Assembly (NCBI GenBank): GCA_964531755.1
Contig: CAZHGG010000001.1
Span: forward strand, 4,446-42,173
Reading direction: 5' to 3'
DNA from: an uncultured Polyangiaceae bacterium
GTDB lineage: Bacteria; Myxococcota_A; Polyangia; Polyangiales; Polyangiaceae
DNA length: 37,728 nucleotides
Under the pieces are notes generated by a model. It ran no database searches. It saw only the letters and a list, made by a program, of their open reading frames with translations, and was not told where the DNA came from. This document shows positions 1 through 24,458 of this stretch, piece by piece (the stretch's first letter is position 1; each line of letters begins with the position of its first letter). The position numbers and the translations under genes are program-made.

Positions 1-3000
1 CCGCTGTCCGAGCTCGCCGCGCGCCTCTGGGGCCAGCCCACGACGGCGGGCGACGGTCGCAGAATGGCAAGGGCGACGCTCGCGCTGCTCACGCTCGCCG
101 CCGCGGCCCGCGATACCGTCGAGCAGCACCCGCTGGTCCCTCACCGCTTGCACGTGCTGACGCGCGGGCCCGAGGGGCTCTCCGTTTGTCTCAGTCCGAA
201 GTGTCCTCCGGAAGAGCGCCGCGTGCTTGGGCGGGGCGCGCTGGTCGCAGGCGCCGTGGATGCCTGCCCGCACTGCCGTTCCGTCGCACTGCCCCTCTAT
301 CGCTGCAGGCGCTGCGGCGAGGTCTTTCTGGGTGCTCGGCTGATCGATGCTGGGGAACGGGTCATCGCTTCGACCGGGCGCTCGCTCCACCAGCGCGCCA
401 AGCTGTGCGCCGCGGCGACCGACACCAGGCGCTCCGAGCACGATACGGAGCCGGCGTCGCGCTACGACGTGAGTCCATCCGACGGCGAGGTCCTCGGCCC
501 TGGGCAGGGCGTCGTCCCTCTCGTGTCCGTCGGTTGCTGTACGCGCTGTGGGCAGACACGGACGCCCGATCTCGACGAGGACGATGAAGAGCACCGCCGC
601 TTCGACGGATTCACGGTCGGCATGCGCGTCGCCAGGAACGTCGCCGCCGAGACGGTGTTGATGGCCCTTCCGCCCGCCGCGAGTCCACTTCGAGCGTGGC
701 TTCCTGCGGAGGGGCGACGCCTGCTCGCGTTCAGCGACAGCCGTGGAGACTCCGCCTCGCTCGGGGCCACGCTCGCCGCTCAGCACGAGCGACTGCTCTT
801 TCGGGCCCGACTCGCGAAGGCTGTAGCTGTCGACGATCCCGCGCAGGCGAAGCTTTGGAGGCGGGACCTCGGGCGGGCCAAGGAGGACCTCACGGACGCC
901 ACACCGTCCGAGCGCGTTCATCTCGAGGACAAGATCGCCGAGTTGGAGCGAAAGCTCCAAGCCCTCGACGCGGGAATCTCGCTCGAAACGCTCGTGCAAC
1001 GACTCCGACGCGATAAGATCCTCGACGAGCTCCTCGACCGAGACGAGGGCGCGCGTCAGACCGCGGAGCACTGGCGGCAGAGCGCCTCCGACCAACGCGC
1101 GAACAACCGCGCAGAGGTTCGAAAGAGGCTGGAGACCCCCATCGCGCGCGAGCTTGTGTCCACGTCTCCCACGGCCATTTCGCTCGAGACGATGGGGCTC
1201 GTCGAAGTGTCGTATCCTGGACTCAGCTCACTCGCGGTTCCGGATGGTCTCGTTGGTGTGCTCCCGCGGGCGCTCGCGGAGGCATGGCCGGACGTTCTCG
1301 CGGCGCTCTGCGACACACTACGCAGCGGCGGGATCGTCACGACGGGTCACGACGAGAGCGACCGGGAGTACGAGTATAGCCAGGTTCTCGGCAAATGGTG
1401 CCCGCTGTCGATCAGCTTCAAGCGAAGGACACCCTCGTTTCTCGGAGCGAGCGATCGCCACCGGCGTCGTCGCTTCGCCCTCGCGATCCTTGGTCCCAGC
1501 GCGACGGACGACGATGCGGTTCGGCTGCTCTCGGCCGCGTACGAGCAGCTTCGAACCAGCGGTCTCGCCTGGGTCCAAGTCAGTGACAAGGTCGAGCACG
1601 AAGGCGGCGTCACCACGGGAATTCGTATCGACTTCCGGGGGCTCACGTTTCGCGCTCCTCCCGCGCTCTTCCGGTCCGCCAGCGTGGGTCTCGTGTGGCC
1701 GCGCAGCGTGCTCGGATGTGCTCCCTATCCTGGCCACGGTGACACGGGGAGCGTGCGCGATCTTCGCCCGGTCACCCCCGCGGAGCTCGACGCCGATCCG
1801 CGGATCGGGCGTCATCGTCGTGAGCAGAAGGAGCCGCTGATGAAGAGGGGCCTCTGGGCCGAGGAGCACTCGGCGCAGCCGAGCGCGCGGGAAAACCGCA
1901 GGAACCAAGACCTCTTCAAGATCGGAGCCCGCAACGTCCTCAGCGCCACGACGACCATGGAGCTGGGGATCGACATCGGCGGTCTCCACGCGGTCTTCCT
2001 GGCGAACGTCCCGCCTGTGCGTGCGAACTACGTGCAGCGCGCCGGGCGCGCAGGCCGCCGGGCGGACGGCTCCTCCGTGGTGGTGACGTTCTGCCGCGCC
2101 AGCCCCTTCGACCACGAGGTGTTCAACCGCTTCGGGGACTTCTTCCGGCGGCTCCCGCGGGCCCCGCGGGTCCTTCTGGATAGGCGCCGGGTGGTTCAGC
2201 GCCACGTCCACGCACTCCTCCTCGGCCAGTTCATTCGGACCCACGCGAACCTCGGGACGAAGGTGGGCGCCATGAACGCCTTCGGTCGCCTCGCCTGGTT
2301 CATCGGCACGGACGTGCCGGCGTACTGGGAATCCGGAATGACTGACAAGCCCGCGTTCCCTGCTCCCAGGGATCCGGCCCCGGCGGACCAGTTTCTCGCC
2401 TATGTAGAGAGCCTGGCCGACGACCAAGAGACGCGGGCAGACATCGGGCGGCTCGTCGCTGGGACCAGCTTCGACAGGCTGAAGGATTCGGCCAACCCTG
2501 ACTGGGACCCATTCTTCGAGGAGGTGCGAAGGGCGCTGGACGACGCGCTCCGTCGCATACGCCAAGACGTCGACGAGCTACGGCGCGCGTACGACGATTG
2601 CGGGGACGCCAAGCGAGCGACGCATGCGATTCGCTACCGCGTCAAAGGCGTGCTCGCGCGGACGACGATCGAGGCCCTTGCCGAGCAGCAGTTCCTCCCG
2701 CGGTACGGGTTCCCGATTGGTGTACATCGACTCAAAGTCGTTGACGCGACTATCAAAAAGCAGGCCTCGCGACCGGATGCCTACCGCCTAGAGCGGGCGT
2801 CCCTCCTCGCGCTTGTCGAGTACGTCCCGGGAACCACGATCCTGGTTGGGGGCAAGGCTGTCACGTCGCGCGGTCTCCTGAAGCATTGGGCGGGAAACGC
2901 GATCGGGACGGACGTACAAGGCCTTCGGGGTCGCTTCGCCAAGTGCAAGAACGAACACTTCCACTACGCCGTCACGCAACACCTGCCTCCATGCCCCCTC

Positions 3001-3858
3001 TGCGGCGAAGGCCCCAAGACCCAGGGCGATCTGATGTTTCCGAGGCACGGCTTCAGCACAGCGGCCTGGGATCCCCCGCGCTGGAGCACGACCGTTGAGC
3101 GCGTCGGCTCCGTCGAGCAGGCGACCATCACTTTCGGACACGGAGACGAGGACGTCGTCGAGTCCTTCGGTGGCATCCCGGGGCTCCGCGCGAAGCACAA
3201 GGAGCTCGGCGAGATTCTCGTCTACAACGAGGGCGAGTGGGGCAAGGGATTCGCCATTTGCACGAAGTGCGGATACGCGGACAGTGAGCCGAAGTACGGG
3301 ACGGGGCGGCTCGATCTCCGGAATGGGTTCGAGTGGCACAGACCCCTCACTCAGGAGCGCGGCAGGTGCTGGGACGACGATACGCCGTCCCCCCTTCGCA
3401 ACCAAACCCTGGCCGCGAGCCAAGTCACCGACGTGCTGCTGCTCGACGTGAGCGGATGCAATGATCTCGCGTTCGCTGCTGCAAAGAGCCAGGCCGTCGC
3501 ACACACGCTGGCGCGCGCGCTTCAGAACGCGGGAGCTCGGATGCTCCAGGTGGACAGCCGCGAGCTCGGAGTGCTCGTGTTGCCGGTCGGCCCCGGGGCG
3601 GCCTTTCAAGCTCCCATCGTGTACGACAACGTGCCCGGGGGTGCCGGGCACGTCCGCGAGCTGATGGACGAGGGGCGCGGCTGGCTCGAGGCAGCGCGTC
3701 AGGTGCTCTACGGATCGCCCGAGCACGACGCGCGCTGCCATCGGGCGTGCTTGGACTGTGTCCTCACCTTCGACGCGCAGACGGCGATGCGCGAGGGGCT
3801 CATCGACCGCCGGCTGGCCCTCGCGGTGCTCGATCGTTGGCTGGGAGCGCGAGCGTGA
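1..3858 (+). CDS. SF2 (DEAD/DEAH-type) helicase with a C-terminal DUF1998/MrfA-like Zn-binding domain. It is 5'-partial: the RecA1/Walker-A half lies upstream of the window. DruE/DrmA-DrmB-like.
   Basis: Frame 1 is open from nt 1, with no stop before the ATG at 64, and no Walker A is present in the window, so the start is upstream. A Cys-rich Zn-ribbon insert is present (CLSPKCPP...CPHCRS...YRCRRCG, about 186-330). Helicase motifs: motif IV-like [12 protein letters not shown] (about 730), motif [14 protein letters not shown], motif [11 protein letters not shown] (about 2035-2061). The DUF1998 hallmark [13 protein letters not shown] lies at about 2686, followed by Cys clusters ([21 protein letters not shown]) up to about 3760. 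Confidence 0.8.
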
Positions 3859-4961
3859 GCGCGCTCACGGTCGAGGAGGTCGACGTGCTGGCTCAGTCCG
3901 CGCGAGCGCCCACCGAGCCCCTTCCGCGCTCCCTCCCCGATTTGCTCTTCCGAGGAGCGCTCCTGGAGCACACGATTCCGGGCCTCTCGTGGCGCGGCTT
4001 CGTGCGGCTCACCCAGGAGGTGCTCCTCCAAACGAACGGCGACGCAGAGGTCTGGGCCCGCGTCGCCTTCGCGCGCGACGTCGGGCGGCGCCACCTGGGC
4101 GAGCGGGCGCTCCTCGAGTGGCCGGTCGTGTCCTCGTGGTTCGCGGCGTTGGACAACAACGCCCAGTCGCGGGCGCTCGCGCATGCCGTCCAGTCCGCAG
4201 CCGACGCTGATCTGGAGGCCGTCGAAGGGTACGCGGCATCCGCGGAGGCGTGGCTCGATCGGGTGCCCGTGACCGCCGAGGCGTTGAGTCTGCGCGGCGC
4301 GGTCGGCCGCGGGTACGCCGCCCTTGGGGAGTACGGGAAGGCCGGGGTCGCGCTCGAGCGCGCGGTCGCGGGTTGGTTCGAGCTCGGGCGCGTCGGCGAC
4401 GCATCGCATCCCCTATGTGAGCTGCTCCGCGTTCGGGGAATTCAGCGAGACGCAGGCGCGGTGACGGTGCTCCGAAATCGGGTGGGCGCGTTCCTCGAGG
4501 CGACGCCCGATCCCACGTCGCGGGCGTTCGTCGAACTGGCCCTCGGCCGCGCCCTCGTCCAGAGCGGTGCGGGTGACGATGGCCAGACCGCCCTCCGTGA
4601 CACGGCGACGGACTGGGGGCAAGCTCCCCCGCATGTCCAGGCGTCGCGCCTTCGATGGCTCCACTACGTCGCAGTCACAAGCGCCGACGACGCGGCCGCC
4701 TCCGAGCACCTCGCCAAGCTTGACGACCTGCGGGACGAGGGGCAGCCGTACGATTCGGACCAGCGCTACGTGGCGCGCGTCGATCGAGGCCTCGCTCAGG
4801 GCTCCGTGCTCACGCCAGACGTCGAGGCGCTCGTCGGGCTCCTCCCCGGAGGTGACGAGGCGGCGAGGACGCTGGTGCGGCTCTCGGGCGGACGGCCGCT
4901 GGCGGACGCGATGAGAGATCGGGCGGTGGTGCGACGGATGGCATGGGAGTATAGGTATTGA
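3855..4961 (+). CDS. Hypothetical alpha-helical (TPR-like) protein, translationally coupled to the upstream helicase.
   Basis: The GTG at 3855 overlaps the helicase TGA (GTGA, 3855-3858). The frame is long with high GC3. Ala/Leu-rich helical repeats are present, e.g. [33 protein letters not shown] recognise no catalytic motif. The start is inferred from the overlap; the ORF track extends it to 3747 inside the upstream gene. Confidence 0.6.
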
Positions 4962-4992
4962 AGTCTCGCCTCACGCACGCGGAACTCGAACG

Positions 4993-7866
4993 ATGAGCCG
5001 GAAGACCCGTTCAGCCAACGCGACCAGCCCAATCCGCCCCGCGCCTCAGAGGACGCAGAAGGCGATCGACAAGGAGCGCCGAAGGGAAGGCAGTGACCTC
5101 GCGGCGAGCGTTGCGGGTTACCATCTCGAAGAGGCGTTTTGGTGCCATCATGTTCTCGACCTTCGACGTCGCATGCGGGTCGCCGTCGAGGCAGTGTTTC
5201 GTCACGTGTTCTGGGTTCGCGAGGGAGATCCCGAAGGGAAAGATCTCAGCACTCTGACGGAGGCCATCCAGCAGCGGGGGGGCGTTCGCTCGGAGGTCAT
5301 CGAGTGGGCGAACCAGTTGCGTCGTTTCGGGAACGAGGCCGCGCACGCGCGAGACCGCGTCCCGCTGCGTCAGCGCATGGAGGACTCTGAGGTCCGCGAT
5401 GCCCTCGAGCTCCTCCGGCGCGTGACGCAGTGGTACTACGGCACGTTCCTCGACGGCGCGCCGATTCCCGCTGCGATCGCGGCGAGCATCGCTTTCCTTG
5501 ATTCTAGGGACGTAGTCGCCGGGCGAATGACCGACGACCAGAGGTTCGGCCATGATCGTCAACTCTTCTTACTCCACGGAAAGTATCAGCTCGAACGTGT
5601 AGAGGGCGTGGGTTCAACAGCGGTCGTATACAAGGCCTTTGACACATTGCTCGAACGTGAACGGGCCCTGAAGGTTCAAACTCTCGAACTCAAGCAAAGT
5701 GAGAAAGCCCTCGAGAACATGCGAAAGGAGGCCAAGCTCCTGAGCGATACGACGCACCCTCGACTCGTTCCCGTGTCATCTGTCGATCGGCTGCCCGACG
5801 GTCGAATCTTCTTCGAGATGCCATTCCTGGTGGGGGGCTCGGTCGCGAGCCGGCTGGCGTCTGCCCCCGCGACCGGACTGGAGCCGAAGACGGCATTCAC
5901 ATGGGCCACCGACCTGATGGACGCGCTGGCGTTCCTCCACGACAAGCAACTTGTTCATCGTGACGTGAAGCCTGAGAACCTGCTCGTCGACGAGACCGGT
6001 CGGGCACAGCTCGCTGACTTTGGGCTCGCACGTACGCTCGATGGCAACGACTTCATTCGCACGCAGACGGTCGCGGGAACCTTTAGGTACCTCGCCCCCG
6101 AGGTGCAGCGTGGTGGTCGAGTAGGTCCCCCGGCAGACGTCTTTTCCGCAGCACTCGTGATTTGCCAACTGCTTGGTGGGGCCATAGACTCCAATGAGCT
6201 CGGTGAAGACCTGCCGCCCTCGGTGCGTGAGGTTCTCAGCGGCATGAGTCGCCAGAACCCGACCGAGCGACAGACCGCACGCGAGGCACTTGAACACATG
6301 CGAGGCTGGGTCGCCGATACCTCGCTCCACGTGCGCATGGAGCAGTGGCGAGAGGCTAGTCGCCTTGTCGGGGGGGCGACGGTCCGTCCCCGCCGCCCCG
6401 CCGCCACCGGAGTGGGGCTGCCACCGGCGGCGTCTCCTCCCGACGGTAACGTTGCGGCCGAACCATTCGTGACGCTGCTGGTCGCGCCAGGGAACCCTCT
6501 CGAAGTTGACATCGAGGTGGACCTCTCCGACTTGGCCGCGAAGCACACGGAGATCGGGCGCACCGAGCCCGCCGACATCGAGCCGGCGGCCGCGGAGGCC
6601 TTCGAAGTGGATGACCCCCACGTCGCTTCGGACACCGAGCTCGAGTTCGAGGACGCGGCGGACCTCGAGCGGAGCCCGTGGGACGGTTCCCCCGAAGCAC
6701 GGGCGTCCGGCGGGGTCGGATCGGAGAGCCAAGGTGATGTCGAGCTCGGCGTCCATGAAAAGCCCCTGACCCCTCCGCAGATTGAGTTCGAGGACGGGAC
6801 GAACCACGGGCCGCGCCTCGGCCAAGGTCCGCCCGAAGCCCGGGCGCGCACAGGGATTGAATCGGAGAACCGACGCGACCTCGAACGGCGCCTCCATCAG
6901 AATCCCCGGGACGCGGTCAGGCTGAACGCGCTCTACAGGGAGTATGAGCGGATGGCGGAGCCCGACTCCCAATGCGCGGTCGCGCAGGTCCTGAGTTACC
7001 TGGGAGCCGCGACTCCGGCACAGGGCGAACTTTGCGAGAGGTATCGTGCCGTGGGGCCCCTCCGCCGCACGACCGTCGTGACGCGCGACGCGTGGAGTCG
7101 ATTGCTCTTCGACATGGCGGATGACTCACCCGTCGGCGAAGTCCTGTCTGTGGTCGTTCCCGCCGTGCTCGACGAGCGGTTCGTCGTTCCGCGTGGGAGC
7201 AGGCCCGCCATCAGCGCGGGGTCGGAGGCCGGGGAAGACCTCCGGGTCGCGCGATCCTTCGCGAGGGCGTCGAGCATTCTCCGCGTTGAGCCGATCGCGC
7301 TGCACCTCTCGCCGGAGTGGGGAGGCCTCGTCGAAGTAGTGCCGCACCTTCGGCGAGGCTCGCGCCTCGGAAAGCTGGCGCTCTCCGGACGTTCGGAGCG
7401 TGAGCTCGCATTCCTCGCGGCGAGGCACCTTGCGTACTTTCGCGAGGAATTCTACATCGCGCTGCTCGTGCCAGACTGGCGTTGGCTCGCGGATGTCTTC
7501 CAGGCTGCGCTCGCCGTAGGCAACCCGGACCACCCCCTCGCAGGCTCGTTCACGGTCCCTCGGGTCGTCGAATCACTGAAGGCGATCCTTGGGCAGCGGT
7601 CCATCGATCTGCTGCGGCAACTCAGCCTTCGCGTCGCGGAGGCGAACGACCGCGTGGACGTCTCCCGCTGGGCGCTTTCGGTGGAGCGCAAGTGCGCACA
7701 GGCCGGTCTGCTTCTCTCGGGCGACCTCAAAGCGGCGGAGGCCGTCTTCGCGCTGGAGGTCGGAGACCGGGCACGGCTCGACGAGAAGATGAACGACCTG
7801 CTGAGCTTCACGCTCTCGGAGCGAGCGAGCAGGCTTCGCAAGGCGCTGGGCATCTCCCTCGCGTAG
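4993..7866 (+). CDS. Three-part protein: N-terminal DUF4145 (HEPN-superfamily) domain, Hanks-type Ser/Thr protein kinase, and an unknown C-terminal domain of about 330 aa.
   Basis: ATG at 4993. The DUF4145-like segment reads LDLRRRMRVAVEAVF...IEWANQLRRFGNEAAHARD; the R..GN.aaH motif is at 5323-5346. Kinase motifs: GVGSTAVVYKA...RALKV, HRDVKPENLLV (5956-), DFGLAR, GTFRYLAPE. An acidic low-complexity linker follows, then a C-terminal region I cannot assign. Confidence 0.88.
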   Translation: MSRKTRSANATSPIRPAPQRTQKAIDKERRREGSDLAASVAGYHLEEAFWCHHVLDLRRRMRVAVEAVFRHVFWVREGDPEGKDLSTLTEAIQQRGGVRSEVIEWANQLRRFGNEAAHARDRVPLRQRMEDSEVRDALELLRRVTQWYYGTFLDGAPIPAAIAASIAFLDSRDVVAGRMTDDQRFGHDRQLFLLHGKYQLERVEGVGSTAVVYKAFDTLLERERALKVQTLELKQSEKALENMRKEAKLLSDTTHPRLVPVSSVDRLPDGRIFFEMPFLVGGSVASRLASAPATGLEPKTAFTWATDLMDALAFLHDKQLVHRDVKPENLLVDETGRAQLADFGLARTLDGNDFIRTQTVAGTFRYLAPEVQRGGRVGPPADVFSAALVICQLLGGAIDSNELGEDLPPSVREVLSGMSRQNPTERQTAREALEHMRGWVADTSLHVRMEQWREASRLVGGATVRPRRPAATGVGLPPAASPPDGNVAAEPFVTLLVAPGNPLEVDIEVDLSDLAAKHTEIGRTEPADIEPAAAEAFEVDDPHVASDTELEFEDAADLERSPWDGSPEARASGGVGSESQGDVELGVHEKPLTPPQIEFEDGTNHGPRLGQGPPEARARTGIESENRRDLERRLHQNPRDAVRLNALYREYERMAEPDSQCAVAQVLSYLGAATPAQGELCERYRAVGPLRRTTVVTRDAWSRLLFDMADDSPVGEVLSVVVPAVLDERFVVPRGSRPAISAGSEAGEDLRVARSFARASSILRVEPIALHLSPEWGGLVEVVPHLRRGSRLGKLALSGRSERELAFLAARHLAYFREEFYIALLVPDWRWLADVFQAALAVGNPDHPLAGSFTVPRVVESLKAILGQRSIDLLRQLSLRVAEANDRVDVSRWALSVERKCAQAGLLLSGDLKAAEAVFALEVGDRARLDEKMNDLLSFTLSERASRLRKALGISLA

Positions 7867-7955
7867 CGCGCGGGCTTCTCGGCTCGGCGCGAGGGTGCGC
7901 TGCCAGTCCCCTGTGGAACCATCGAATGACCGGAAAGGCCTCGAGCCCTGAGCCG

Positions 7956-9062
7956 TCATCGGCCGCCGCGAGTCCCCTTGACCGCCGGTGCGCCCACAAC
8001 AGCATCGATGTAGTCGCCGGGTAGCCCGCGAGCTGTCGCGCCGTCGACGATGAGCCTCAGGTAATCCTCCGTCGGCCCACACCCGTCCGGGCACCTTGCC
8101 TTCGCGACGAACGTGAAGACCTCGACCGGCTGCGCGTCCCCTCCTCCTGTCACCCGCCACGCGGTCATCTCGCGCTTGGCGTAGCCCCCTTCGCGCCGGG
8201 CGAGCTCGACCGCGTCCTCGGGTGGAACGCTGTAGAGGAAGCCCCACACCATCGAACACGCGGACGTCTCGATGCTCGCGGCGTCGCATCGCCGAGTGAC
8301 GCTGTGCTTGTTGAACACCAGGCGGTGACCCGGCAGGAACGCAATGCCCTCGGCGCGCGCGTTCGGGGCCTTGGCCAACATCTCGCGCTCCGCGAGGTTC
8401 GACCCGTAGGCGAAGTAGGTCTCGGCGGCTTCCCATTCAATCGGCTGCCCCGAAGCCGGTAGCACGAGCCCGCTAAGGGCGTCCATGCGCTGCAGGAACG
8501 CTTCGCGAAGGTGCGGTGCACCGGTGGAGAGATCGCGGACGTATTCGCCGACCTCCGCCTGGATGGCCTCGTGGAACAGCCTCCTGTTGAGGATTCGCGT
8601 CTTGGCGCCCGCGACCTTCGTCAACATCTCGGGAGTGTCGACCCGAACCTTCCAGTCGCCGCGAGTCTCTCCGTTGTGGAGGAGCCCGTTGCGAACGTCT
8701 TGGAAGCCCCAGCGATCGTTCCCGGAGAAGCACGAAAATCGCGGCCCCTTCAGGAATGTGCGGAACGACTTCGCCGTCGTGTTCTCCCCAGTGGTCACGC
8801 GACCTTCGCGGAACGCCTGGAGGGTGTCGATCAGGAGGCAGTCGAGGGCCAAGATCGCGAAGCCAGGAACCAGGCCGTCCCTGCGCCCTGTGCTCGCGAG
8901 GGTGGCGATCGGCCCGAGGAATCGCTCGTCGAGGCGCCGCCGAACGGCGGCCACGACCTCCACCCAGGCCGCGTCGTCGGAGTGTGCGCCTTCCAGGCGG
9001 CCGCGAAGCTCGAGGTAGCGGCTAACCGGGAAACCCGATGCAAGCTCGGTCGTCAGATCCAT
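7956..9062 (-). CDS. Two-domain protein: N-terminal alpha-helical domain with an HEPN-type RNxxxH motif, and a C-terminal gamma-glutamylcyclotransferase (AIG2/GGCT-like) domain.
   Basis: ATG at 9062 overlaps the upstream gene's stop by 10 nt. RNGLLH is encoded at 8676-8693 (CGC AAC GGG CTC CTC CAC on the minus strand). The C-terminal YFAYGSNLAEREMLAKAPNA...GHRLVFNK...VWGFLYSVPPEDAVELARREGGY...EVFTFV follows the YGSL/GGCT-fold pattern (about 7990-8420). Confidence 0.8.
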   Translation of the reverse strand: MDLTTELASGFPVSRYLELRGRLEGAHSDDAAWVEVVAAVRRRLDERFLGPIATLASTGRRDGLVPGFAILALDCLLIDTLQAFREGRVTTGENTTAKSFRTFLKGPRFSCFSGNDRWGFQDVRNGLLHNGETRGDWKVRVDTPEMLTKVAGAKTRILNRRLFHEAIQAEVGEYVRDLSTGAPHLREAFLQRMDALSGLVLPASGQPIEWEAAETYFAYGSNLAEREMLAKAPNARAEGIAFLPGHRLVFNKHSVTRRCDAASIETSACSMVWGFLYSVPPEDAVELARREGGYAKREMTAWRVTGGGDAQPVEVFTFVAKARCPDGCGPTEDYLRLIVDGATARGLPGDYIDAVVGAPAVKGTRGGR

Positions 9063-11701
9063 CGTCCGAGCTCGTTTCTCGCCTGCACGCGCCCTGTAGG
9101 CTCAATACCCCAAGCATGGGCCGCCGCTCGAGCGGCGACGGCATACTTCGAGTCCGCGAGCCATCTCCGCCGCACGACGTCATTGCGCCTCTGGCGAAGG
9201 TACTGTGAAAGCTCGGAGTTCGCCCGAACGAAGTCCGCTAGATGAACGACATCGCCCTCTGGCCCAGTGGCGAGAGGAAGGTCGAGAGTACTTGTCGAAT
9301 ACTCCGGGAGACGGTCCCTTTCCTCGGCCCTGTAGAGGAGCCTCATCCACAGCGAGATCCAGCCGAGAATCTTCTGTCCATCAACTGTTCCACTATGAAG
9401 ACGAACTTCGATCGTGCCCATCCCTCGTTCGTCAAATAGTGGGCGAGGATTAACGGTAAGATATCTTCGACTCAGGTGCTCTAGAAAGTGTTTCTGCCAG
9501 TCATCCATCGTCGGGAAAGACAACAGTTGTTCAACATGCTGTCGAATCGGCTCGCAGCTCGGGTTCCATCCGCGCGACGGAGCGACCAGGCTGTAGAGCG
9601 CAGGCTCATAGTATGAAACTAGCTGCATGAGCCTTCGCAGCGCACGAAGGTCCTTGTTCCACGCGAAGTGAACATGGGTTCCCGTCTTCGGAGTGCTGAC
9701 CGACAGCCCGAGGCGTTTTGCTGCCGACTGAAGAGCATTGCAGGCTCGAACGACTTCTCGGTACCCGGCCTCCCCGCGCAATATGCGACTCGTCACTTCC
9801 CATCCGCAGCTGCTGTCCCACTCGACGTTCCACACCTCGTGGTTCTTGTCTTGTTCGTGATACTCCTCGCGGGGCTGCGCTGCCCTCTCTGTCTGGGGAA
9901 TCGACCGAAGCAGCGCGGTCGCGACCCTTAGCCAGTCAGGAGGCTTCTCGCCCGTGAAGTCGCTTCGGGTAAACTCAAATTCGATTCCGAAGTCCTGCTT
10001 CGGCTGAAGGTCGAAGCCAGCGATGCCCTCATACCCTTCGCAGAGCGCTATGTGCTCGAAGCGGGCCGGCTCGAAGGTGTACATTGGCGCTCGCGTCGCC
10101 GACTTGCCGCCCCGGCTGTCCGACCCCATCGGGTCGAAGAAGTGCTTGGGGGAAACAAGGACGTCGCCATGACGCGTCAAGGCGTCCTCGAAGTCGACGA
10201 TTCGGAACCCGTCCTTTCCTGGCGCCTTCCTCACTGCACGGCCGACCATTTGCGCAAACAGCGTCATGCTCGCCGTCGGGCGGGCCAAGAACACGGTCTT
10301 GATGCCGGGGATGTCGATGCCGTGCGTCATCATAGCGACGTTCACGAGGACGCAGGTGCGCTTCGTCTTGAACAGGTCGATCGCGGCGCGCCGCTCTTCG
10401 GGCCGCAGCGCCGAGTGGACCACGCCAACGGCAACGCCGCGCATCTTCAGCGCAGAAAATAGTCCCATCGCGTGCTGGATGTTGCAGGCAAAAATGAGCG
10501 TCTGCCCGTACCGCTCCCTGCCGTTGATGTAGGTGTCCACGATCATCCGAGTGCGTCGAGGGTCGTTCGCGAGCTCCGTGAGCGACGCCGTAGTAAAATC
10601 GCTGTAGCTGCTTCGCCGTACAGGGGCCCACGAGACGCGAGTCTTCACCGGAGGCTCTGGAAGCCTCGGCGCGAGCACGTCCATCCTTGCCAGGGTCGGG
10701 TAGTCGTATTCGCAGCCAACGAGGCGGAAGCCCGTCCCTTGGCGCGGCGTCGCCGTGAGGCCAACGAAGACGGCCTCGGGGTATGCCTTGAGCAGCCCGC
10801 GGTACGCCTGCTTGCCCTCACCCCAATGAAGCTCGTCGATGATCACGGTGTCGAAGGAGACCCCGGCGAAGTCCTTGTGCTTGCGGCGCCGCCACATGTG
10901 AATTGTCGTGTACGTGACGACGGCATCCGACCGAGGCGTGCGGCCGAAGAACTGGGCGGGCTCGCCCACGTGGCCAACGTATGCGCGCTTCCACCGTCGG
11001 CAGAGGTCGGTGGCCGCCTGCCGCAGGAGCGCCCAGTCCTTGGTGATCCAGAGGACGCGCCGTCCTTCCGTCAACGCGTGCGCGCCGATCCAGTCGTTGG
11101 CGATACGGGTCTTCCCTCCGCCCGTGGCCACGGTGATTCGGAGCCGACTTCGTCGAGTCGCGCGTGCTACCGCGAGCGCGAGCTCGCGCGTCAGCTCGCG
11201 CTGAAACGAATAGGGCTCGAAGCGCGAAGCCTCCTCGTTGAACTCAAGGTCGGAGGGGTCGGAGTCGTCTTCCAGGTCGTCAGGTGCCGAGTCGTCGTCG
11301 TCGAGGGCCTGCAGTCCGTCATCGGACTCTTGCTTCTCTTCGTCCTCTTCCGCTGCCGCGCTTCCCGACCCCGCGAAGCTCGAGAGTCGAACGAGCTCTG
11401 GAGGTGCCTGATTGTCGCGGAAACAGGCGAGCGCGATCCGAACGAGTTTGGCCTTGGAGTAAGTCGCATCCGGGAGGTGATAGGTCCCGCCGTCGCCGTC
11501 CGTGAGGTTAGCGAGAAGCACGCGGAGGTCCTGCTCGCGCAGGTCCCCAAAAAGTCGTTCATGGTCACCCCGATACGAACGCGCGAGCCGCTCGCGCTTC
11601 GCGACGATGCCGGCCTCCACGCCTCGAACGCGACATAGCCGGTCGATCGCGGCTCGGTCCGCGATCTTCAAGACGTCCAAGAGACTTCGGATCGTGACCA
11701 T
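9053..11701 (-). CDS. Fusion protein: N-terminal HeH/SAP-like segment and acidic linker, SF2 helicase (type III restriction res-subunit-like), and a C-terminal Amidoligase_2 (glutamine-synthetase-fold COOH-NH2 ligase) domain.
   Basis: ATG at 11701 is preceded by GGAGG. Helicase motifs: ITVATGGGKT (Walker A), VIIDELHWG (DExH), GLTATP, QMVGRAVRK (about 10171-11209). The C-terminal domain (about 9316-9991) reads FGIEFEF, WNVEWDSSCGWEVTS, GTHVHF, GTIEVRLHSGT, which matches the order and pattern I recall for Pfam Amidoligase_2. Confidence 0.85.
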   Translation of the reverse strand: MVTIRSLLDVLKIADRAAIDRLCRVRGVEAGIVAKRERLARSYRGDHERLFGDLREQDLRVLLANLTDGDGGTYHLPDATYSKAKLVRIALACFRDNQAPPELVRLSSFAGSGSAAAEEDEEKQESDDGLQALDDDDSAPDDLEDDSDPSDLEFNEEASRFEPYSFQRELTRELALAVARATRRSRLRITVATGGGKTRIANDWIGAHALTEGRRVLWITKDWALLRQAATDLCRRWKRAYVGHVGEPAQFFGRTPRSDAVVTYTTIHMWRRRKHKDFAGVSFDTVIIDELHWGEGKQAYRGLLKAYPEAVFVGLTATPRQGTGFRLVGCEYDYPTLARMDVLAPRLPEPPVKTRVSWAPVRRSSYSDFTTASLTELANDPRRTRMIVDTYINGRERYGQTLIFACNIQHAMGLFSALKMRGVAVGVVHSALRPEERRAAIDLFKTKRTCVLVNVAMMTHGIDIPGIKTVFLARPTASMTLFAQMVGRAVRKAPGKDGFRIVDFEDALTRHGDVLVSPKHFFDPMGSDSRGGKSATRAPMYTFEPARFEHIALCEGYEGIAGFDLQPKQDFGIEFEFTRSDFTGEKPPDWLRVATALLRSIPQTERAAQPREEYHEQDKNHEVWNVEWDSSCGWEVTSRILRGEAGYREVVRACNALQSAAKRLGLSVSTPKTGTHVHFAWNKDLRALRRLMQLVSYYEPALYSLVAPSRGWNPSCEPIRQHVEQLLSFPTMDDWQKHFLEHLSRRYLTVNPRPLFDERGMGTIEVRLHSGTVDGQKILGWISLWMRLLYRAEERDRLPEYSTSTLDLPLATGPEGDVVHLADFVRANSELSQYLRQRRNDVVRRRWLADSKYAVAARAAAHAWGIEPTGRVQARNELGRWI

Positions 11702-11751: not shown

Positions 11752-14700
11752 CTACCCGTCGTCCCCCTCAGGCACCTTCACCTTCCCCTTCGTCGTGGAC
11801 GCCACGCCCATCGTCTCGAGCTCCGCCCCTGGGGCCAACGATAGCGTGCGCGCGACGAACACCTCGCGTCGGCCGCTCGCGTGGCTGTACGAGCACGACA
11901 GCACCGGCGCGAGCGAAATCGGTGCTCCGCTGGGGCGGAGTAGGTAGCACCAGTTCTCCAGGAGCTTGCCTTGGACCCGTTCCTCGCGGACAGGGAAGTG
12001 ATCACTCCCGCCTTGAAGCACGCGAACCTGGTAGCGAGCCGGGCCGCCCGACACGTCGAAGTCCTGGAGAACGACGCGGACCACAAGCTTGAGCTCGGAG
12101 AGCCCCTCGAGCGCCTGCTCGAAGCGACGCCAAAGGGCATGCAACGCGTGCTCAGCCTGCGCGACGGCCTCCTCGTTCCGCGTGACCGCGTGAGAGAACA
12201 CGTTTCGCGCTGGAACGACCGTTTCGAAAATCTCCTTCGTGAGGTCCGACTGCTTCCCGTCGGCCGTCACCAGCGCACGACCTGGCCGGCTCGCCGGGTC
12301 CAAACCTCCCGGCGGCAACAATGCCGCCAGGCGCCACGCGAGCTCGAGCCAGGTGCCCATCGAGATCGGGCGGCGCAGGTCCTCCGTGATGAGCACGCGT
12401 GCTTGTTCGGGCAGTTGGCCGTCGTTGGTCGAACGGAGAAGCCCAAGCTCGACACCCACCAAGAACGTGAGCGCCTTCTCGAAGGCATCTCGCAGGGTCT
12501 TCACGCGAAGGACGACGTTCTCCTGACTCTCCACGAGGCCGTCGAACACGGCGATGGGATACGGAAGCACGCTTGGAGTCGACGTACCCGATGCCGGAGT
12601 CGTAGCAAGCGCAACATGAGCAGAAGACCGCGCCGCCGGAAGGACCTCCACGGGAAGCTCCGGAACCGCCGGTGGGACCGCCTCCGCGGCCCGTTCCGGA
12701 GCGGCGACCACCTCTTCCGCCACGTTCGCGGCGGAGAGCTCCCGAGCGCCCCCTAGCTCGCGCAGGACAGGCACGTGGTGCCCACACGCCTGCCCCAGCC
12801 AGCGCACGGTCCCCGCCACGTCCAGGAGGTAGCTCTCGACCACCTCCAAGGCGAACTTCTCGGGCAAGCAGTCCTGGAACTTGGAGAGCCGATACTCGGG
12901 CAGCCTCGCGAGCACCGCTCGCCGCGTGTCCGGGTCCGACCAGAAGGCCGGTGTGGCCATCCGCGCGATCGCCTTCCGGACGCTCTCGTGCCCAATTCCG
13001 TCGCCATCGATTCGGAGCTGAAAGTTGTCCGCCATCACCTTCCAACCCTCGGCCACCTCGAAGCCGTACTTGAGAGTGTGGTTCACCTGCCCGCCCGCGA
13101 ACGTCCACCAGAGCGCGACGCCCCCATCGAGCTGCACGGCGTGCCCATCGCGCCGAAGGAGCTCACCGAGATCGGCGCGCTTCTCCTCGATGTGCTTCCA
13201 CGCCACGTCGTCCACATACGGGTAGCGCGCGCTCTCGGTGAGGGCGCGCTTCATGCGCTGGCAGACATCGAGCCCGAGGTGCTGCGGGAGGTAGCCTCCC
13301 CAGCTTGGCTTCATGCCACGCGGCGCCTCGCGAACGACCACCTCACGATCTTCGTGGCTCACGCGGTCGACTGTCCATGCACGGCCACCAAGCAAGAACG
13401 AGCTCATTTGCTCGACCAGGCGATCGACGAAGCCCTGCTCCAGCGAGCCGACATCTCGCCTCGTGTGCCTGACGACTCGGTAGAGCTTCGGCGACGAGAA
13501 CACCGCGTAGAGCTCCAGGAAGTTCTTCTTCCCGAAGCGCTTCTCGGCCTTCTCGCCCATCGAGAGGAGCCCGTCCGCCTCGAAGAGGAACTGCTCCTTC
13601 TTCATGTGAAGGATCGCTTCGTCGTACTCCGCGCGAGTGATGGCGCGAAAGTCGGGCACGCGTGCGAGCTGCTCCCAGATGCGGTCGGCGCCAATGGCGC
13701 CGAACTGGAGCGTCATCGCGAGCACCTGGTGCACCAAGACAGGCCAACATCGCTCCTGCTTGGTCACGCGCTCGACCCACCCCTCGCGGGCGAGCTCGAC
13801 GAGCGCGACCGCCTGGAGCACGGACTCGGGGTCTTCGCAGAGGAACGCCGTGTTCGGACGCGTGCCCGCGCGCCTCCCCGTCCGGCCCATGCGCTGCATG
13901 AAGGACGAGACCGTGCTCGGCGCGTTCGCCTGGAAGACGAGATCGAGATCGCCCACGTCGATGCCGAGCTCGAGGGTCGACGTGCACACGATGCACGCGT
14001 TCGTCCCGTGGGCGAAGCGATCTTCGGCGGCCCTTCGCTCCTCCAACGAAACCGAGCTGTGATGCACGAACACGTCGATCTCGCGCCCGCGCATCCTCTC
14101 GGCGACCACCTCGGTGAGCGCCCGCGACTGGCAGAAGAACAAGCTCTTCTTGTTCGACGCCCGTCTCGCGGCGGCGGTCGCGACACCCGCCACGCTCTCG
14201 TGAAGTCCGATGGAGAGGTCGCGCTTGGCGGGGATCTTCGGCGGATCGACGACCACGCCCTCACGCTTGGACGAACCGCCGAGCCACGCGAGGATGTCGT
14301 GGGGATTGCCCACGGTGGCCGACAGTCCGACACGCTGAAGATCGTTTTGGCTTAGCGGCGCGAGTCGCTCGAGGACCGACATCAGGTGCGCCCCGCGATC
14401 GGTCCCCGCGAGCGCGTGAACCTCGTCGATCACCACGAGACGAAGGTCCTTGAAGAGCCGAACCACGGGGGAGCGAGGCGACACGAGCATGACCTCGAGC
14501 GACTCCGGCGTGGTCATGAGGATCTCGGCGGGCTCCCTCACGAACCGACGCCGCTCACCATCGGGGACGTCCCCGTGCCAGACGAAGCGCCGCAAGCCGA
14601 CCATCTCGGCGTACGTCCCGAGCCGCTCCTCCTGGTTGTTCAACAGGGCTTTGATGGGCGCGATGTAGAGGACCCCCACGCCGTCGGGCTCGCGCTCCAC

Positions 14701-14889
14701 CAGGCCCGCGAGCGCGGGGAAGATGGACGCTTCGGTCTTTCCTCCCGCGGTGGGCGCGAGCGCGACGACGTTCTTCCCGTCGAGGATGGCCTCCCCAGCG
14801 AGCTCCTGCACAGGGCGGAGCGAGGTCCACCCGAGGCGCGAGACGATCGCCTGTTGAAGGCGGGGCGGAAAGCGGGCGAACGCGGTCAT
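11752..14889 (-). CDS. brxHI: BREX Lhr-like DEAD/DEAH helicase BrxHI with a non-helicase C-terminal extension of about 330 aa.
   Basis: The N-terminus, FPPRLQQAIVSRLGWTSLRPVQELAGEAILDGKNVVALAPTAGGKTEA, is Lhr-type. Further motifs: VVIDEVHALAGTDRGAHL (DEVH), LGIDVGDLDLVFQ, FMQRMGRTGRR. ATG at 14889 overlaps the upstream stop (ATGA). Its position after brxD matches BREX types 2 and 6. Confidence 0.85.
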   Translation of the reverse strand: MTAFARFPPRLQQAIVSRLGWTSLRPVQELAGEAILDGKNVVALAPTAGGKTEASIFPALAGLVEREPDGVGVLYIAPIKALLNNQEERLGTYAEMVGLRRFVWHGDVPDGERRRFVREPAEILMTTPESLEVMLVSPRSPVVRLFKDLRLVVIDEVHALAGTDRGAHLMSVLERLAPLSQNDLQRVGLSATVGNPHDILAWLGGSSKREGVVVDPPKIPAKRDLSIGLHESVAGVATAAARRASNKKSLFFCQSRALTEVVAERMRGREIDVFVHHSSVSLEERRAAEDRFAHGTNACIVCTSTLELGIDVGDLDLVFQANAPSTVSSFMQRMGRTGRRAGTRPNTAFLCEDPESVLQAVALVELAREGWVERVTKQERCWPVLVHQVLAMTLQFGAIGADRIWEQLARVPDFRAITRAEYDEAILHMKKEQFLFEADGLLSMGEKAEKRFGKKNFLELYAVFSSPKLYRVVRHTRRDVGSLEQGFVDRLVEQMSSFLLGGRAWTVDRVSHEDREVVVREAPRGMKPSWGGYLPQHLGLDVCQRMKRALTESARYPYVDDVAWKHIEEKRADLGELLRRDGHAVQLDGGVALWWTFAGGQVNHTLKYGFEVAEGWKVMADNFQLRIDGDGIGHESVRKAIARMATPAFWSDPDTRRAVLARLPEYRLSKFQDCLPEKFALEVVESYLLDVAGTVRWLGQACGHHVPVLRELGGARELSAANVAEEVVAAPERAAEAVPPAVPELPVEVLPAARSSAHVALATTPASGTSTPSVLPYPIAVFDGLVESQENVVLRVKTLRDAFEKALTFLVGVELGLLRSTNDGQLPEQARVLITEDLRRPISMGTWLELAWRLAALLPPGGLDPASRPGRALVTADGKQSDLTKEIFETVVPARNVFSHAVTRNEEAVAQAEHALHALWRRFEQALEGLSELKLVVRVVLQDFDVSGGPARYQVRVLQGGSDHFPVREERVQGKLLENWCYLLRPSGAPISLAPVLSCSYSHASGRREVFVARTLSLAPGAELETMGVASTTKGKVKVPEGDDG

Positions 14890-15662
14890 GCGCCGCGCAA
14901 GCGCTGGTCAGTCTCGTTCATGAGACTCACGAACCTATCCATGGCCTCTTCACGGCGACTGAGAGCGTAGTCGAGCCACTCCTCGACAGAGGCATCCGAG
15001 GGCTCGTTGCTAGCCGCCTCCAGCCGAACGTGCATTCGATAGTGCTTGTAGTGGGGTTCAAGCGTTGCGAGCCCAATGCCGAACCGCTGGCACTCGCGAA
15101 CCACCTTGTCGAGCCTTGGATCCGAGAGCGTGAATCCCTTCTCTGGCCACTCCAGGAGGACGAACCCCTCGTGCGCGAACCGTGCGTGCGAAGCTGCTTC
15201 AAAGACAGCGTTCACGTCCCATACGCCCCACTGCTTAACTTCGAATGTCGTCAGCAGAACGCGGCGCTTGCGAAGCGTGGGATAGACCTCGACCGACACC
15301 TGAGTCACGTCGGGATTTTGCCACTTCCCCCGCTTGCGTAGCGACGCCGTGTCGAACGCAAGGCTCTCTGGTGAGTCTCGCTGAATGGCATCGACAAGCG
15401 GCGCGTATAGGTCCTTCTCCTTCTCGACCGAGGAGGTCGTTTCGTACTTGGGCGAGACCTCCCGCTCGCCCTTCCTCGTGAGACGTAGGCCGCCACCACG
15501 ACAGACGTACTTCTCCGCAAGTTCTTCGTGGATGACAGAGGCGCGAACCTCGTCGTAACGCTCATCGCCAAGGCTCAGCTCGAGCTTTATTCGTGCATTG
15601 GAGAGTCCGCCAGTCTCGGCCAGAAGATTCAGAACTCGCTCGCGGTCGCTGGGTCGTGCCAT
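14886..15662 (-). CDS. Hypothetical protein with an N-terminal winged-helix-like domain and a PD-(D/E)xK nuclease-like core. It is a non-canonical insert between brxD and brxHI.
   Basis: ATG at 15662 lies 3 nt after the brxD TAA, and the stop overlaps the brxHI ATG. The N-terminus, RERVLNLLAETGGLSNARIKLELSL...RLTRKGE, looks wHTH-like. The core reads E..LYAPLVDAI, then NPDVTQVSVEV, then TTFEVKQW (D118, E141-x-K143; about 15234-15311). The gene is visibly less GC-rich than its neighbours. Confidence 0.65.
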   Translation of the reverse strand: MARPSDRERVLNLLAETGGLSNARIKLELSLGDERYDEVRASVIHEELAEKYVCRGGGLRLTRKGEREVSPKYETTSSVEKEKDLYAPLVDAIQRDSPESLAFDTASLRKRGKWQNPDVTQVSVEVYPTLRKRRVLLTTFEVKQWGVWDVNAVFEAASHARFAHEGFVLLEWPEKGFTLSDPRLDKVVRECQRFGIGLATLEPHYKHYRMHVRLEAASNEPSDASVEEWLDYALSRREEAMDRFVSLMNETDQRLRGA

Positions 15663-15665
15663 TGT

Positions 15666-17036
15666 TTAAAACTCCACGGAGGTTTCGGGATAGCCCTTCT
15701 CGTCGTCGGGCTCGGGATCGTACGGGATGGCCTTCTTCCCCTCCGAGGCGCGCTGCTCTTCGATGGTATCGGGTCGCGGGGGCAGCGGAGGCAGCGGGGG
15801 CAGCCGCATGTCCGGGTTCTCTACCACCCAATCGAAGTCGTTCACGAGTCGCCTCATGAACTGCCTCGGGACCACTCCAACCTCGCCGCCCAGTCCCTTC
15901 GACACGTGGTCCACGAGCTGCTCGATCCGCTCGGGTGTGACGTTCTTCGCGACGATGTTCGGATCACCCCCTGGGTAGAGCTCGCGGAGGCGAAGCCCGA
16001 CGTCCTTCAGACGCGCTCGGTCGAACGGGCGCAGCTCGAGCTGCGGCTGCCGCATCGTCACGAGCCCTCCCTCGTTGAGAAAGCGGATACGATCGTGGAG
16101 CGGCTGGAGGCCCGCCACTCCGCGCCGCGTGTCGAAGAACTCCGGCGTCCCGGTGAAGACCCAGAGCAGACCCTCGAAGCTGTCCGCGTTGTCGATGATC
16201 TGACGAATGCCGTTCAGCGACTTGCCACGAACGTCGCCGCGCATCCGAAGGATGGTTTCGGCCTCGTCGACCACGACCACGAGCCCTTCGTAGCCGGCAG
16301 CCTTCACCACGGCGAGGATGCCGCGGAGGTAGTGCATCGCGTCGGTGCTCGTGATCTCGCCACGGATACCCGCGCTCCGCTTCTCGGCCGCGCTCACGTT
16401 TTCGCTCCCCGAGAGCCACGAGAGCAACGCGCCCGCTTCGCGCACCTTCCCGGCTTGCTTCAACGAGAAGATCTCACGAAGCACGCGGCCGAGGTCTTCG
16501 GGCGCCTTCCCGCCGGTGAGAGAGCGAATGTCCTCTTCGATTCGCTTCTGCACCTTCTGGTCGAAGTCCGGAGCGCTCTCGTCCGCGCCGCCTGCGACGA
16601 GCGCGTTCTCCACCTTCGCGATCCATCGGTCGATGATGTCGCCGAGCGCGCCGCGAGGGCATGAGCTGGTCCCGAGCTCCTGGACCACGCGGCGGTAGAG
16701 GTCCTCGAACTTGTGCAGGTGAAAGTCGTTGTCGGAGACCACCACGAAGCTCGTGGCGAACCCCAAGCCCGGCGTGCTCGTGGGCGCGGGCGTGGGCGTT
16801 CGTCGATAGTGCTGCGCGTCGAGCACCGCCAGCCTGGCCATGAAGGTCTTCCCGCAGCCGTATCCGCCACGCAAGAACTTGAAGACCCCTTCGCCGGACG
16901 CCGCCAACGTGAGGAGTCTCGTGATCTCGGCGTGCTGCCTCTCGACTCCGACAGCAAACGCCTCGAGCCCGCGCTCCGGGACGACTCCGGAGCGAAGGCG
17001 CTCGAAGATGTGCTCGCGATCTCGTTGGCTTATCAT
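15666..17036 (-). CDS. brxD: BREX ATP-binding protein BrxD (DUF2791 P-loop ATPase).
   Basis: The internal ATG at 17036 overlaps the pglZ TGA (ATGA). The N-terminus reads MISQRDREHIFERLRSGVVPERGLEAFAVGVE...FKFLRGGYGCGKTF (Walker A), with VVVVDEAE as Walker B. The 135 codons upstream in the ORF track are Arg-rich and overlap pglZ. Confidence 0.85.
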   Translation of the reverse strand: MISQRDREHIFERLRSGVVPERGLEAFAVGVERQHAEITRLLTLAASGEGVFKFLRGGYGCGKTFMARLAVLDAQHYRRTPTPAPTSTPGLGFATSFVVVSDNDFHLHKFEDLYRRVVQELGTSSCPRGALGDIIDRWIAKVENALVAGGADESAPDFDQKVQKRIEEDIRSLTGGKAPEDLGRVLREIFSLKQAGKVREAGALLSWLSGSENVSAAEKRSAGIRGEITSTDAMHYLRGILAVVKAAGYEGLVVVVDEAETILRMRGDVRGKSLNGIRQIIDNADSFEGLLWVFTGTPEFFDTRRGVAGLQPLHDRIRFLNEGGLVTMRQPQLELRPFDRARLKDVGLRLRELYPGGDPNIVAKNVTPERIEQLVDHVSKGLGGEVGVVPRQFMRRLVNDFDWVVENPDMRLPPLPPLPPRPDTIEEQRASEGKKAIPYDPEPDDEKGYPETSVEF

Positions 17037-19891: not shown

Positions 19892-19984
19892 GAGGGGATC
19901 CTACTCTTGCCTTCAGGCATCTTCGAGCTCACGGAGAGGGGAATCGAGCACCGAGCCACCCGCGTGGCGTGACGGCTTCCGAGA

Positions 19985-24357: not shown

Positions 24358-24458
24358 GTTGATGTGTTCCACAGTGTTCGTCGGTCGGCGAGGTCCGCGG
24401 GTGCCGAGCAAGAGAGCACGACGGTCGCGGTGATGCCGCCTTGAAGGGTCCAGCTCAC

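Follow-up and report, generated by a model that had tools for sequence, protein, structure and literature searches.

The stretch of DNA analysed here (the window) comprises 37,728 nucleotides (nt) from an uncultured Polyangiaceae bacterium (positions 4,446 to 42,173 of contig CAZHGG010000001.1, assembly GCA_964531755.1) and as a whole looks like one defence island. We focus on an open reading frame (ORF) at 4993-7866 on the forward strand which, according to the ORF list and its translation, is a single intact frame of 957 amino acids (aa) with an ATG start. Its product is laid out as a predicted DUF4145-type HEPN domain followed by a Hanks-type Ser/Thr kinase, an acidic, proline-rich linker, and a folded C-terminal domain of ca. 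350 aa. Judging from the related loci described below, this HEPN-kinase is probably a component of a rare four-gene unit that further comprises a large gene X, a DruE-like helicase gene, and a smaller gene M. The parts present in the window are:

1..3858, + strand: 3' part (1285 codons) of the gene for a DruE-like SF2 helicase of the YprA family; Helicase_C and MrfA Zn-binding (DUF1998) domains, ending at MZB without a PLD nuclease
3855..4961, + strand: gene M, 368 aa, without known family; homologues at loci L001, L011, and L002
4993..7866, + strand: HEPN(DUF4145)-kinase-linker-acquired C-terminal domain protein, 957 aa (ORF list, Pfam, codon-position GC)
5092..5460, + strand: predicted DUF4145-type HEPN domain, ca. 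aa 34-156 (Pfam, profile search, AF2/Foldseek, five-sequence alignment)
5587..6297, + strand: Hanks-type Ser/Thr kinase domain, aa 199-435 (Pfam Pkinase, PknB-like matches in the PDB, motifs)
6316..6804, + strand: acidic, proline-rich linker, aa 442-604, probably disordered (no homologue found; frame kept)
6805..7863, + strand: acquired C-terminal domain, aa 605-957 (homology to a ca. 500-aa Polyangiaceae family, AF2, breakpoint, dN/dS)

The GTG start of M overlaps the helicase stop codon (GTGA), and the kinase ORF begins 31 nt after M. The helicase frame is open from base 1 of the window, so the gene is cut by the window edge and its 5' ca. 430 codons lie outside; apart from this point, the upstream genes are as given in a preliminary description of this DNA. 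Across the kinase ORF, GC content by codon position (lowest at the second position) keeps the frame through the acidic linker that had already been noted there, which is rich in Ala, Glu, Pro, and Asp and gave no real repeat in a tandem-repeat search. There is thus no sign of a frameshift, and a merger of two genes through a frameshift or sequencing error is unsupported. A scan of positions 3600-8200 found terminator-like sites at chance level and a lone promoter-like match inside the kinase coding region that we did not use as evidence. The exact 957-aa product has no database record elsewhere.

The preliminary description had assigned the N-terminus to DUF4145, a HEPN-superfamily domain, and had pointed to the motif LRRFGNEAAH. 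We consider this prediction sound because DUF4145 matches throughout the family, a profile link to the protein P0174, and top (though non-significant) fold matches to HEPN structures all agree. The motif covers aa 109-118 and nt 5317-5346 (the range 5323-5346 originally given for it holds only its last eight residues) and contains an intact R-x6-H signature, R111-FGNEAA-H118 (nt 5323-5346), in keeping with the R-x4-6-H pattern of HEPN domains. Residues R111, N114, and H118 are invariant in an alignment of all five family members. In Pfam, the full-length protein scores 20.8 bits against DUF4145 (PF13643), below the gathering score of 23.1 bits, while the isolated N-terminus passes marginally (23.8-24.2 bits; E 3.5e-5 to 4.9e-5), and four out of four close family members match the domain (best E 2e-6). 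A HMMER search of 1.84 billion representative proteins with a profile of four N-terminal domains retrieved just seven proteins, including P0174 at E 1.9e-7, which itself matches DUF4145 with 48 bits (E 1.3e-12). An AlphaFold 2 (AF2) model of the N-terminus, built from four sequences, reached a predicted local distance difference test score (pLDDT) of 74.5. Its top PDB matches in Foldseek are the HEPN structures 1o3u and 1ufb (probability 0.97-0.99; target-normalised template modelling score 0.57-0.63; E 0.3-0.4, i.e., non-significant), with further HEPN toxins lower in the list. The N-terminal region also has a weak NCBIfam match to the N-terminal region of HsdR.

The kinase domain has a Pfam Pkinase (PF00069) match over aa 199-435 at E 8.1e-37 and 127.5 bits against a cutoff of 31.7 bits. 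As first reported from inspection of the translation, its catalytic motifs are complete, from the glycine loop to the APE motif:

aa 204-210: glycine loop, EGVGSTA
aa 227: beta3 lysine (K227) of RALKV
aa 246: alphaC glutamate (E246)
aa 322-329, nt 5956-5979: catalytic loop HRDVKPEN of the HRDxKxxN type (HRD 322-324, N329)
aa 342-344: DFG
aa 357-359: activation-loop TQT
aa 366-370: YLAPE (APE 368-370)

The nearest solved structures are bacterial kinases of the PknB/PknA type (E ca. 1e-24 to 1e-25), and the TQT pair resembles the phospho-threonine pair of M. tuberculosis PknB. Among defence models, PADLOC matches the ORF to PD-T4-6 (E 1e-46), mad6 (2e-43), and PglW (7e-18). The PD-T4-6 match spans just the kinase core, from aa 194 to 397 and from position 9 to 210 of a 347-position profile, and is no better than the match to PknB, and the NCBIfam scores for MAD6 (133.3 bits) and PglW (63.4 bits) compare with cutoffs of 460 and 990 bits, respectively. 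Like PD-T4-6, Stk2, PglW of BREX type 2, and MAD6 of MADS, the protein brings a Hanks-type kinase domain to a defence island; unlike them, it has other partners, the similarity is confined to the kinase core, and the matched regions of those models contain no HEPN domain.

Relatives with the same N-terminus are extremely scarce. Searching 5.8 billion clustered proteins with the full sequence returned thousands of kinases, of which just three have this domain in common with the query: P0001 (549 aa), the nearest homologue with 75% identity, which is cut short soon after the kinase domain, P0002 (752 aa), and P0003 (764 aa, 61% identity). Each of them covers only the first ca. 45% of the 957-aa query. 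A HMMER profile search added P0177 (780 aa, ca. 30% identical) as the most distant member, so that the family consists of four relatives and the window protein at five loci, all of them metagenomic. Neither the N-terminal profile nor gene M found a match among 185,579 GTDB species representatives, a plasmid collection likewise held no match for the HEPN-kinase N-terminus or M, and a scan of JGI metagenomes gave only an unrelated kinase. The kinase of P0177 is degenerate, with HRD changed to HGN, the catalytic-loop lysine to Asp, and DFG to DLD, and with the activation loop deleted, while the HEPN motif is kept. P0177 is therefore predicted to be a pseudokinase that has probably lost phosphotransfer.

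The five loci are arranged as follows, in the order in which the genes are encountered:

Window: DruE-like gene (cut by the window edge), M (368 aa), 31 nt, kinase (957 aa)
L002: X (>1180 aa), DruE-like gene (1708 aa), M (466 aa), kinase (764 aa)
L011: DruE-like gene fragment, M (370 aa), kinase (752 aa)
L001: kinase, divergent from X (946 aa), DruE-like gene (1717 aa), M (368 aa)
L012 (P0177 contig): kinase (780 aa), X (916 aa), DruE-like gene (1716 aa), a 368-aa gene

The HEPN-kinase gene adjoins the DruE-like/M cluster at five of five loci, in varying order but with constant adjacency that is kept even where kinase identity falls to 30% (the helicases are 73% to 42% and the M proteins 58% to 39% identical to those of the window). 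Since the kinase gene has changed position, from the 3' end of the cluster to its 5' end or onto the opposite strand, and has yet stayed with it, this pattern points to functional linkage rather than mere co-residence in an island. The three-gene system proposed in the preliminary description is thus supported by the other loci, with a DruE-like helicase and a gene of ca. 368 aa beside every homologue, and probably extends to four genes.

The helicase fragment in the window is 73% identical to its L001 homologue (1717 aa) over residues 433-1712 of the latter and matches the PADLOC model DruE3 at E 3.7e-142, and the full-length L001 helicase matches DruE at E 5.6e-196. Pfam detects Helicase_C and MZB in the window fragment, and DEAD, Helicase_C, and MZB across the window and related helicases. 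As the DruE3 match stops at ca. position 1675 of a 2055-position profile and the protein ends at MZB/DUF1998, the helicase lacks the C-terminal PLD nuclease part. Gene M has homologues at L001 (58% identity), L011 (44%), and L002 (39%), each directly downstream of the DruE-like gene, and the 368-aa gene of the P0177 contig sits at the same position. M proteins have a conserved C-terminal AWEYRY motif and found no match in Pfam, PADLOC, NCBIfam, or the PDB. The large upstream gene X is seen at the loci that reach that far, and its products are homologous to each other and fast-evolving (916-1180+ aa).

Two of the related loci carry further genes of interest. At L012, a 353-aa protein encoded at 292-1353 on the reverse strand, adjoining P0177, has a DUF4145-like motif (WGNLAAHAKG, with Arg replaced by Gln) and a hydrophobic C-terminus; it aligns to the HEPN profile with a pairwise hhalign E of 3.7e-4, and the neighbourhood may thus contain another HEPN gene, possibly an inactive one. 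At L002, the region behind the P0003 module (12304-22295) holds defence-like genes for an AAA_5 ATPase and two partners without assignment, followed by a PLD pair resembling PDC-M27A/ZacB and by an SNF2-like helicase, so that by its predicted gene content this locus is also a defence island.

Both published subtypes of Druantia III, III-A and III-B, consist of DruH and DruE only, and the DruE of III-B is compact and devoid of PLD domains (preprint 10.64898/2026.05.13.724758). A survey of YprA-family helicases likewise found that those of the "Druantia Type III-like" branch are most often without a nuclease (PMC12458937). The loci described here resemble Druantia III in their large YprA-family helicase with DEAD, Helicase_C, and MZB/DUF1998 domains and strong PADLOC DruE matches, as well as in the large gene without annotated domains directly upstream of the helicase at the related loci, and they resemble III-B in particular in that the helicase ends without PLD domains. 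They differ from the two-gene DruH-DruE systems in the additional conserved genes M and HEPN-kinase and in a protein at the DruH position that lacks a DruH hidden Markov model (HMM) match. Neither that YprA survey nor the searched literature mentioning Druantia links the system to a kinase or HEPN-kinase. On HMM scores and genomic context, we therefore propose that the locus is a Druantia III-B-like system in a new form with four genes. The nearest annotated relative found for the helicase is 36% identical and encoded on Roseomonas plasmids behind a single large upstream gene (1325 aa). Neither M nor a kinase gene was found beside this plasmid helicase, which is followed by insertion sequence (IS) elements, so that downstream genes could have been lost there. 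On the Roseomonas mucosa plasmid AP031465.1 (27094-36343), this helicase is an IS-flanked, compact DruE-like protein of 1731 aa annotated merely as "DEAD/DEAH box helicase", and together with its upstream gene it looks like a Druantia III-B-like pair that has escaped annotation.

For the HEPN-kinase itself, eukaryotes offer an architectural parallel. Ire1 combines an active kinase, and RNase L, an antiviral enzyme of animals, a pseudokinase, with a HEPN RNase of the KEN type, and in both of them nucleotide-dependent dimerisation of the kinase domains assembles a composite HEPN active site. The proteins described here share with them the union of a Ser/Thr kinase with a HEPN domain on a single chain as well as an antiviral context, and P0177 resembles RNase L in being a predicted pseudokinase that keeps the HEPN motif. 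Unlike in Ire1 and RNase L, the HEPN domain is N-terminal, i.e., the order is reversed, and of the DUF4145 instead of the KEN type; Pfam scans of the 957-aa ORF showed no KEN-like domain after the kinase. KEN has been listed as restricted to eukaryotes, and the fusions listed for DUF4145 in the same study include no kinase (Anantharaman et al. 2013, PMC3710099). The fusion is hence independent and convergent, and the comparison with Ire1 and RNase L, which had been drawn at the outset, is reasonable as an analogy only, albeit one that the degenerate kinase of P0177 strengthens. We found no description of a prokaryotic kinase-HEPN fusion in the searchable literature. Closer to home, the HEPN-DUF499 ATPase ("BREX-related") and DUF4145-HsdR/REase-helicase proteins also carry an N-terminal HEPN domain on a component of a helicase system, whereas the fusion partner here is a protein kinase encoded separately from the ATPase/helicase. 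For HEPN domains attached to core parts of helicase-centred systems, a role as back-up suicide effectors has been proposed (PMC12839542; PMC3710099).

The C-terminal third of the protein has a different history. Homology to the other HEPN-kinases stops at ca. nt 6315, and P0002, P0003, and P0177 instead continue into a different helical domain (ca. 300 aa), at whose end all three share the motif L(R/V)RLFRP. Residues 605-957 of the window protein are 32-50% identical to the C-terminal two-thirds of a stand-alone family of ca. 500 aa (53 clusters), whose members with a source name come from Polyangiaceae or other Myxococcota. Proteins of this family (P0122-P0173) consist of a highly conserved N-terminus of ca. 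100 aa, a coiled coil, an acidic linker, and the C-terminal domain. Their loci (L004-L007, e.g., L004 6001-7494) lie in housekeeping-type neighbourhoods in the three members looked up, namely between a gene for a TPR protein of ca. 950 aa and a BatD/VWA operon in two of these members (three of four loci) and beside succinate dehydrogenase in the third. The window contains none of these usual neighbours and, in any frame, no trace of the family's N-terminal 127 aa, which argues for a captured, N-terminally truncated paralogue rather than a native gene interrupted in place; insertion of the island into a native stand-alone gene was rejected on these grounds. Conversely, a conserved family role of the domain was rejected because it shows no similarity to the C-terminal domain of P0003 and belongs to the other, stand-alone family. 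By homology, residues 605-957 are thus a lineage-specific replacement of the usual helical C-terminal domain with a diverged copy of a host domain. The preliminary description had recognized that a C-terminal domain is present, but its view of this domain as an uncharacterised part of the architecture does not hold, given that it is no family feature but a paralogue of a stand-alone Polyangiaceae protein.

The AF2 model of this domain (pLDDT 82, predicted template modelling score 0.84) shows TPR-like helices and an alpha/beta core weakly resembling zincin peptidases. Profile searches of Pfam, NCBIfam, and the PDB returned nothing, and Foldseek searches of the PDB and BFVD gave non-significant matches only, which recurred on zincin/M48-type peptidases and TPR proteins. 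Since the HExxH motif is absent from the whole family of this domain, we do not call it a peptidase; it may serve as a lineage-specific sensor or adaptor, or be a passenger.

Its front edge also varies between close strains. Three short contigs (L008, L009, and L010) from samples SRR14092368, SRR14092370, and SRR14092382 of one study are 97% identical to window positions 6805-8271, and the breakpoint against the window lies at 6804/6805. To its left, all three carry an unrelated 5' flank (L008 1-37, L009 1-20, and L010 1-37; GTTGTCGCGGACCTGCAAGAATAGTTGACGCCAATCA), in which a stop codon lies in frame directly before 6805. All of them end within 37 nt of this junction, which suggests a branch in the assembly graph caused by strain variation. 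On this comparison, close strains differ by a recombination event exactly where the C-terminal domain begins. The nine residues left of the breakpoint in the window, IEFEDGTNH, match IELEDARSH of the ca. 500-aa family, suggesting that the continuity in the window is native and that the other strain was rearranged. Between the two strains, the ratio of non-synonymous to synonymous substitution rates (dN/dS) in the C-terminal domain is ca. 0.28 (14.5 non-synonymous and 18.5 synonymous changes), i.e., the domain is under purifying selection. The family match at the breakpoint and this ratio both argue that the ORF of the window is real.

Taken together, we favour the view that the HEPN-kinase is a conserved component of a four-gene Druantia III-B-like module in which it acts as a kinase-regulated HEPN RNase, serving as the effector or a back-up arm, and assign this view a probability of about one half. 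The loss of catalytic kinase residues in P0177 with retention of the HEPN motif favours such a role. The helicase module would sense phage DNA intermediates, as published for Druantia III-A, and the HEPN-kinase would be the effector or back-up arm that is missing from the nuclease-less helicase. Nucleotide binding or autophosphorylation of the PknB-like TQT loop could then make the kinase domains dimerise, thereby pairing two HEPN domains into a composite RNase site that cleaves RNA and halts growth or phage gene expression. This would mirror Ire1/RNase L, except that the two domains stand in the opposite order. A more far-reaching version of this idea is possible but tentative: an independently evolved bacterial counterpart of RNase L/Ire1, in which a (pseudo)kinase gates the fused HEPN RNase, would supply the effector arm that the nuclease-less helicase lacks and define a new Druantia subtype of four genes that turns DNA sensing by a YprA helicase into RNA degradation, with a swappable C-terminal domain, in this case taken from a host housekeeping protein, setting sensing or docking.

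Several points weigh against our preferred view. The comparison covers just five loci, all metagenomic and of similar GC content (64-67%), so shared ancestry could inflate the apparent synteny. The position of X lies outside the window, which begins downstream of it, and the four-gene unit at this locus therefore rests on the related loci, where the X proteins at the DruH position (L001, L002, and L012) gave no PADLOC match to DruH even at E-values up to 10. The label "Druantia III-B-like" likewise derives from HMM scores and context instead of placement in a YprA tree. For the HEPN domain, the DUF4145 score barely exceeds the gathering score, the Foldseek E-values are non-significant, and we know of no DUF4145 HEPN domain that has been biochemically shown to be an RNase. 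Four of the five members have a kinase that seems fully active, so the output of the system could be phosphotransfer instead of RNA cleavage. RNase, kinase, and defence activities are all predicted from sequence, as is every functional statement made here.

Those active-looking kinases are also what lends weight to two readings without an RNase. The HEPN-kinase could be a regulatory subunit whose kinase phosphorylates the DruE-like protein, M, or X and thereby switches the helicase complex on or off, while the HEPN domain cleaves no RNA and serves for nucleic-acid binding or assembly. The tight operonic linkage, with the GTGA overlap of helicase and M and the kinase gene only 31 nt behind M, would suit such a subunit well, and the interactions of Druantia III-A DruH and DruE with host proteins reportedly change on infection (10.64898/2026.05.13.724758). 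However, the invariant R-x6-H motif alongside the loss of kinase residues in P0177 runs counter to a purely phospho-regulatory role, which predicts the reverse, and a compact DruE without nuclease would leave the module without an obvious effector, which makes this reading unlikely. About as unlikely is a stand-alone kinase of the Stk2/PD-T4-6 type that detects an infecting phage and triggers abortive infection by phosphorylating proteins of host or phage, its HEPN-like domain being non-catalytic (regulatory or nucleic-acid-binding) and the helicase genes forming an independent system of the same island. PD-T4-6 models are indeed the top PADLOC matches, the kinase misses no catalytic residue and has a TQT activation loop like that of PknB, and defence genes cluster in islands anyway, of which the window is one. 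Yet the PD-T4-6 match merely reflects the generic kinase core, P0177 has lost the catalytic Asp and stays with the module all the same, and the same adjacency to the DruE-like gene and M at every locus, despite rearrangement and identities as low as 30%, is hard to explain by island clustering alone.

The third alternative concerns the ORF itself, which could be an accidental or artefactual chimera of a HEPN-kinase that ends after its kinase domain and a separate, N-terminally truncated gene for the C-terminal 350 aa, joined in frame through island insertion, recombination, or metagenome mis-assembly. Such a joint could account for the nearest homologue P0001 being only 549 aa long, for the end of HEPN-kinase homology at nt 6315, for the product being on record nowhere else, and for 97%-identical contigs from three samples that diverge exactly at 6804/6805 with an in-frame stop. 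Against it stand 2.9 kb without a stop or change of frame and with a coding GC pattern through the linker, the nine residues left of the breakpoint that resemble the stand-alone family and suggest that it was the other strain that rearranged, and the purifying selection on the C-terminal domain (dN/dS 0.28). We consider a chimera the least probable of the three alternatives and, even if true, it would touch only the tail of the protein and neither the HEPN-kinase nor its linkage to the helicase module.

Beyond what had been described before, we regard the partnership with the helicase at all loci, the predicted pseudokinase with a retained HEPN motif, and the mosaic, strain-variable C-terminal domain as the most informative results. 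Druantia systems are widespread and their mechanism is only now emerging, and the HEPN-kinase together with M is a candidate for an effector arm through which a system with the nuclease-less DruE of III-B could harm phages. If this is true, DNA sensing by a helicase would be linked to shutdown at the level of RNA, and if the kinase gates the RNase, the protein would be a convergent counterpart of RNase L/Ire1 of which one branch has already drifted to a pseudokinase. Independently of mechanism, the swap of the C-terminal domain and the strain-level breakpoint illustrate how defence proteins may acquire host domains.

Downstream of the HEPN-kinase gene, the remainder of the window is filled with other candidate defence genes. 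Between the kinase gene and brxHI, positions 7956-11701 on the reverse strand encode an 882-aa fusion of an SF2 helicase (ResIII and Helicase_C) to Amidoligase_2 and, downstream with a 10-nt overlap, a 368-aa AIG2/GGACT-like protein (gamma-glutamyl cyclotransferase fold). This unusual pair could form a defence module of its own that works by peptide tagging or through an amidoligase. It is followed by a BREX type 6 gene set at 11752-30207, also on the reverse strand:

29617-30207, - strand: BrxE
28138-29415, - strand: 425-aa ORF containing BrxB, with ca. 220 unassigned N-terminal residues
24459-28109, - strand: BrxC
19985-24325, - strand: PglX
17033-19891, - strand: PglZ
within 15666-17441, - strand: BrxD
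14886-15662, - strand: 258-aa ORF without assignment
11752-14889, - strand: BrxHI

Library scans of this gene set revealed no separate match to BrxA. The preliminary description had raised the possibility that the HEPN-kinase supplies a PglW-like activity to this type 6 BREX in trans. As no BREX genes lie beside the kinase gene at the other four loci, such a role is unsupported, and we rejected a BREX helper function also in light of a similarity to PglW that is limited to the kinase core (63 against 990 bits). In the window, the BREX genes lie on the strand opposite to the kinase gene. Still further downstream, positions 31593-36981 on the forward strand hold three co-directional ORFs with coding-type GC content at third codon positions, which encode a 377-aa protein without family, a 591-aa TPR protein, and an 822-aa ResIII/SNF2-like helicase with a weak C-terminal match to YgjP-like metallopeptidases.

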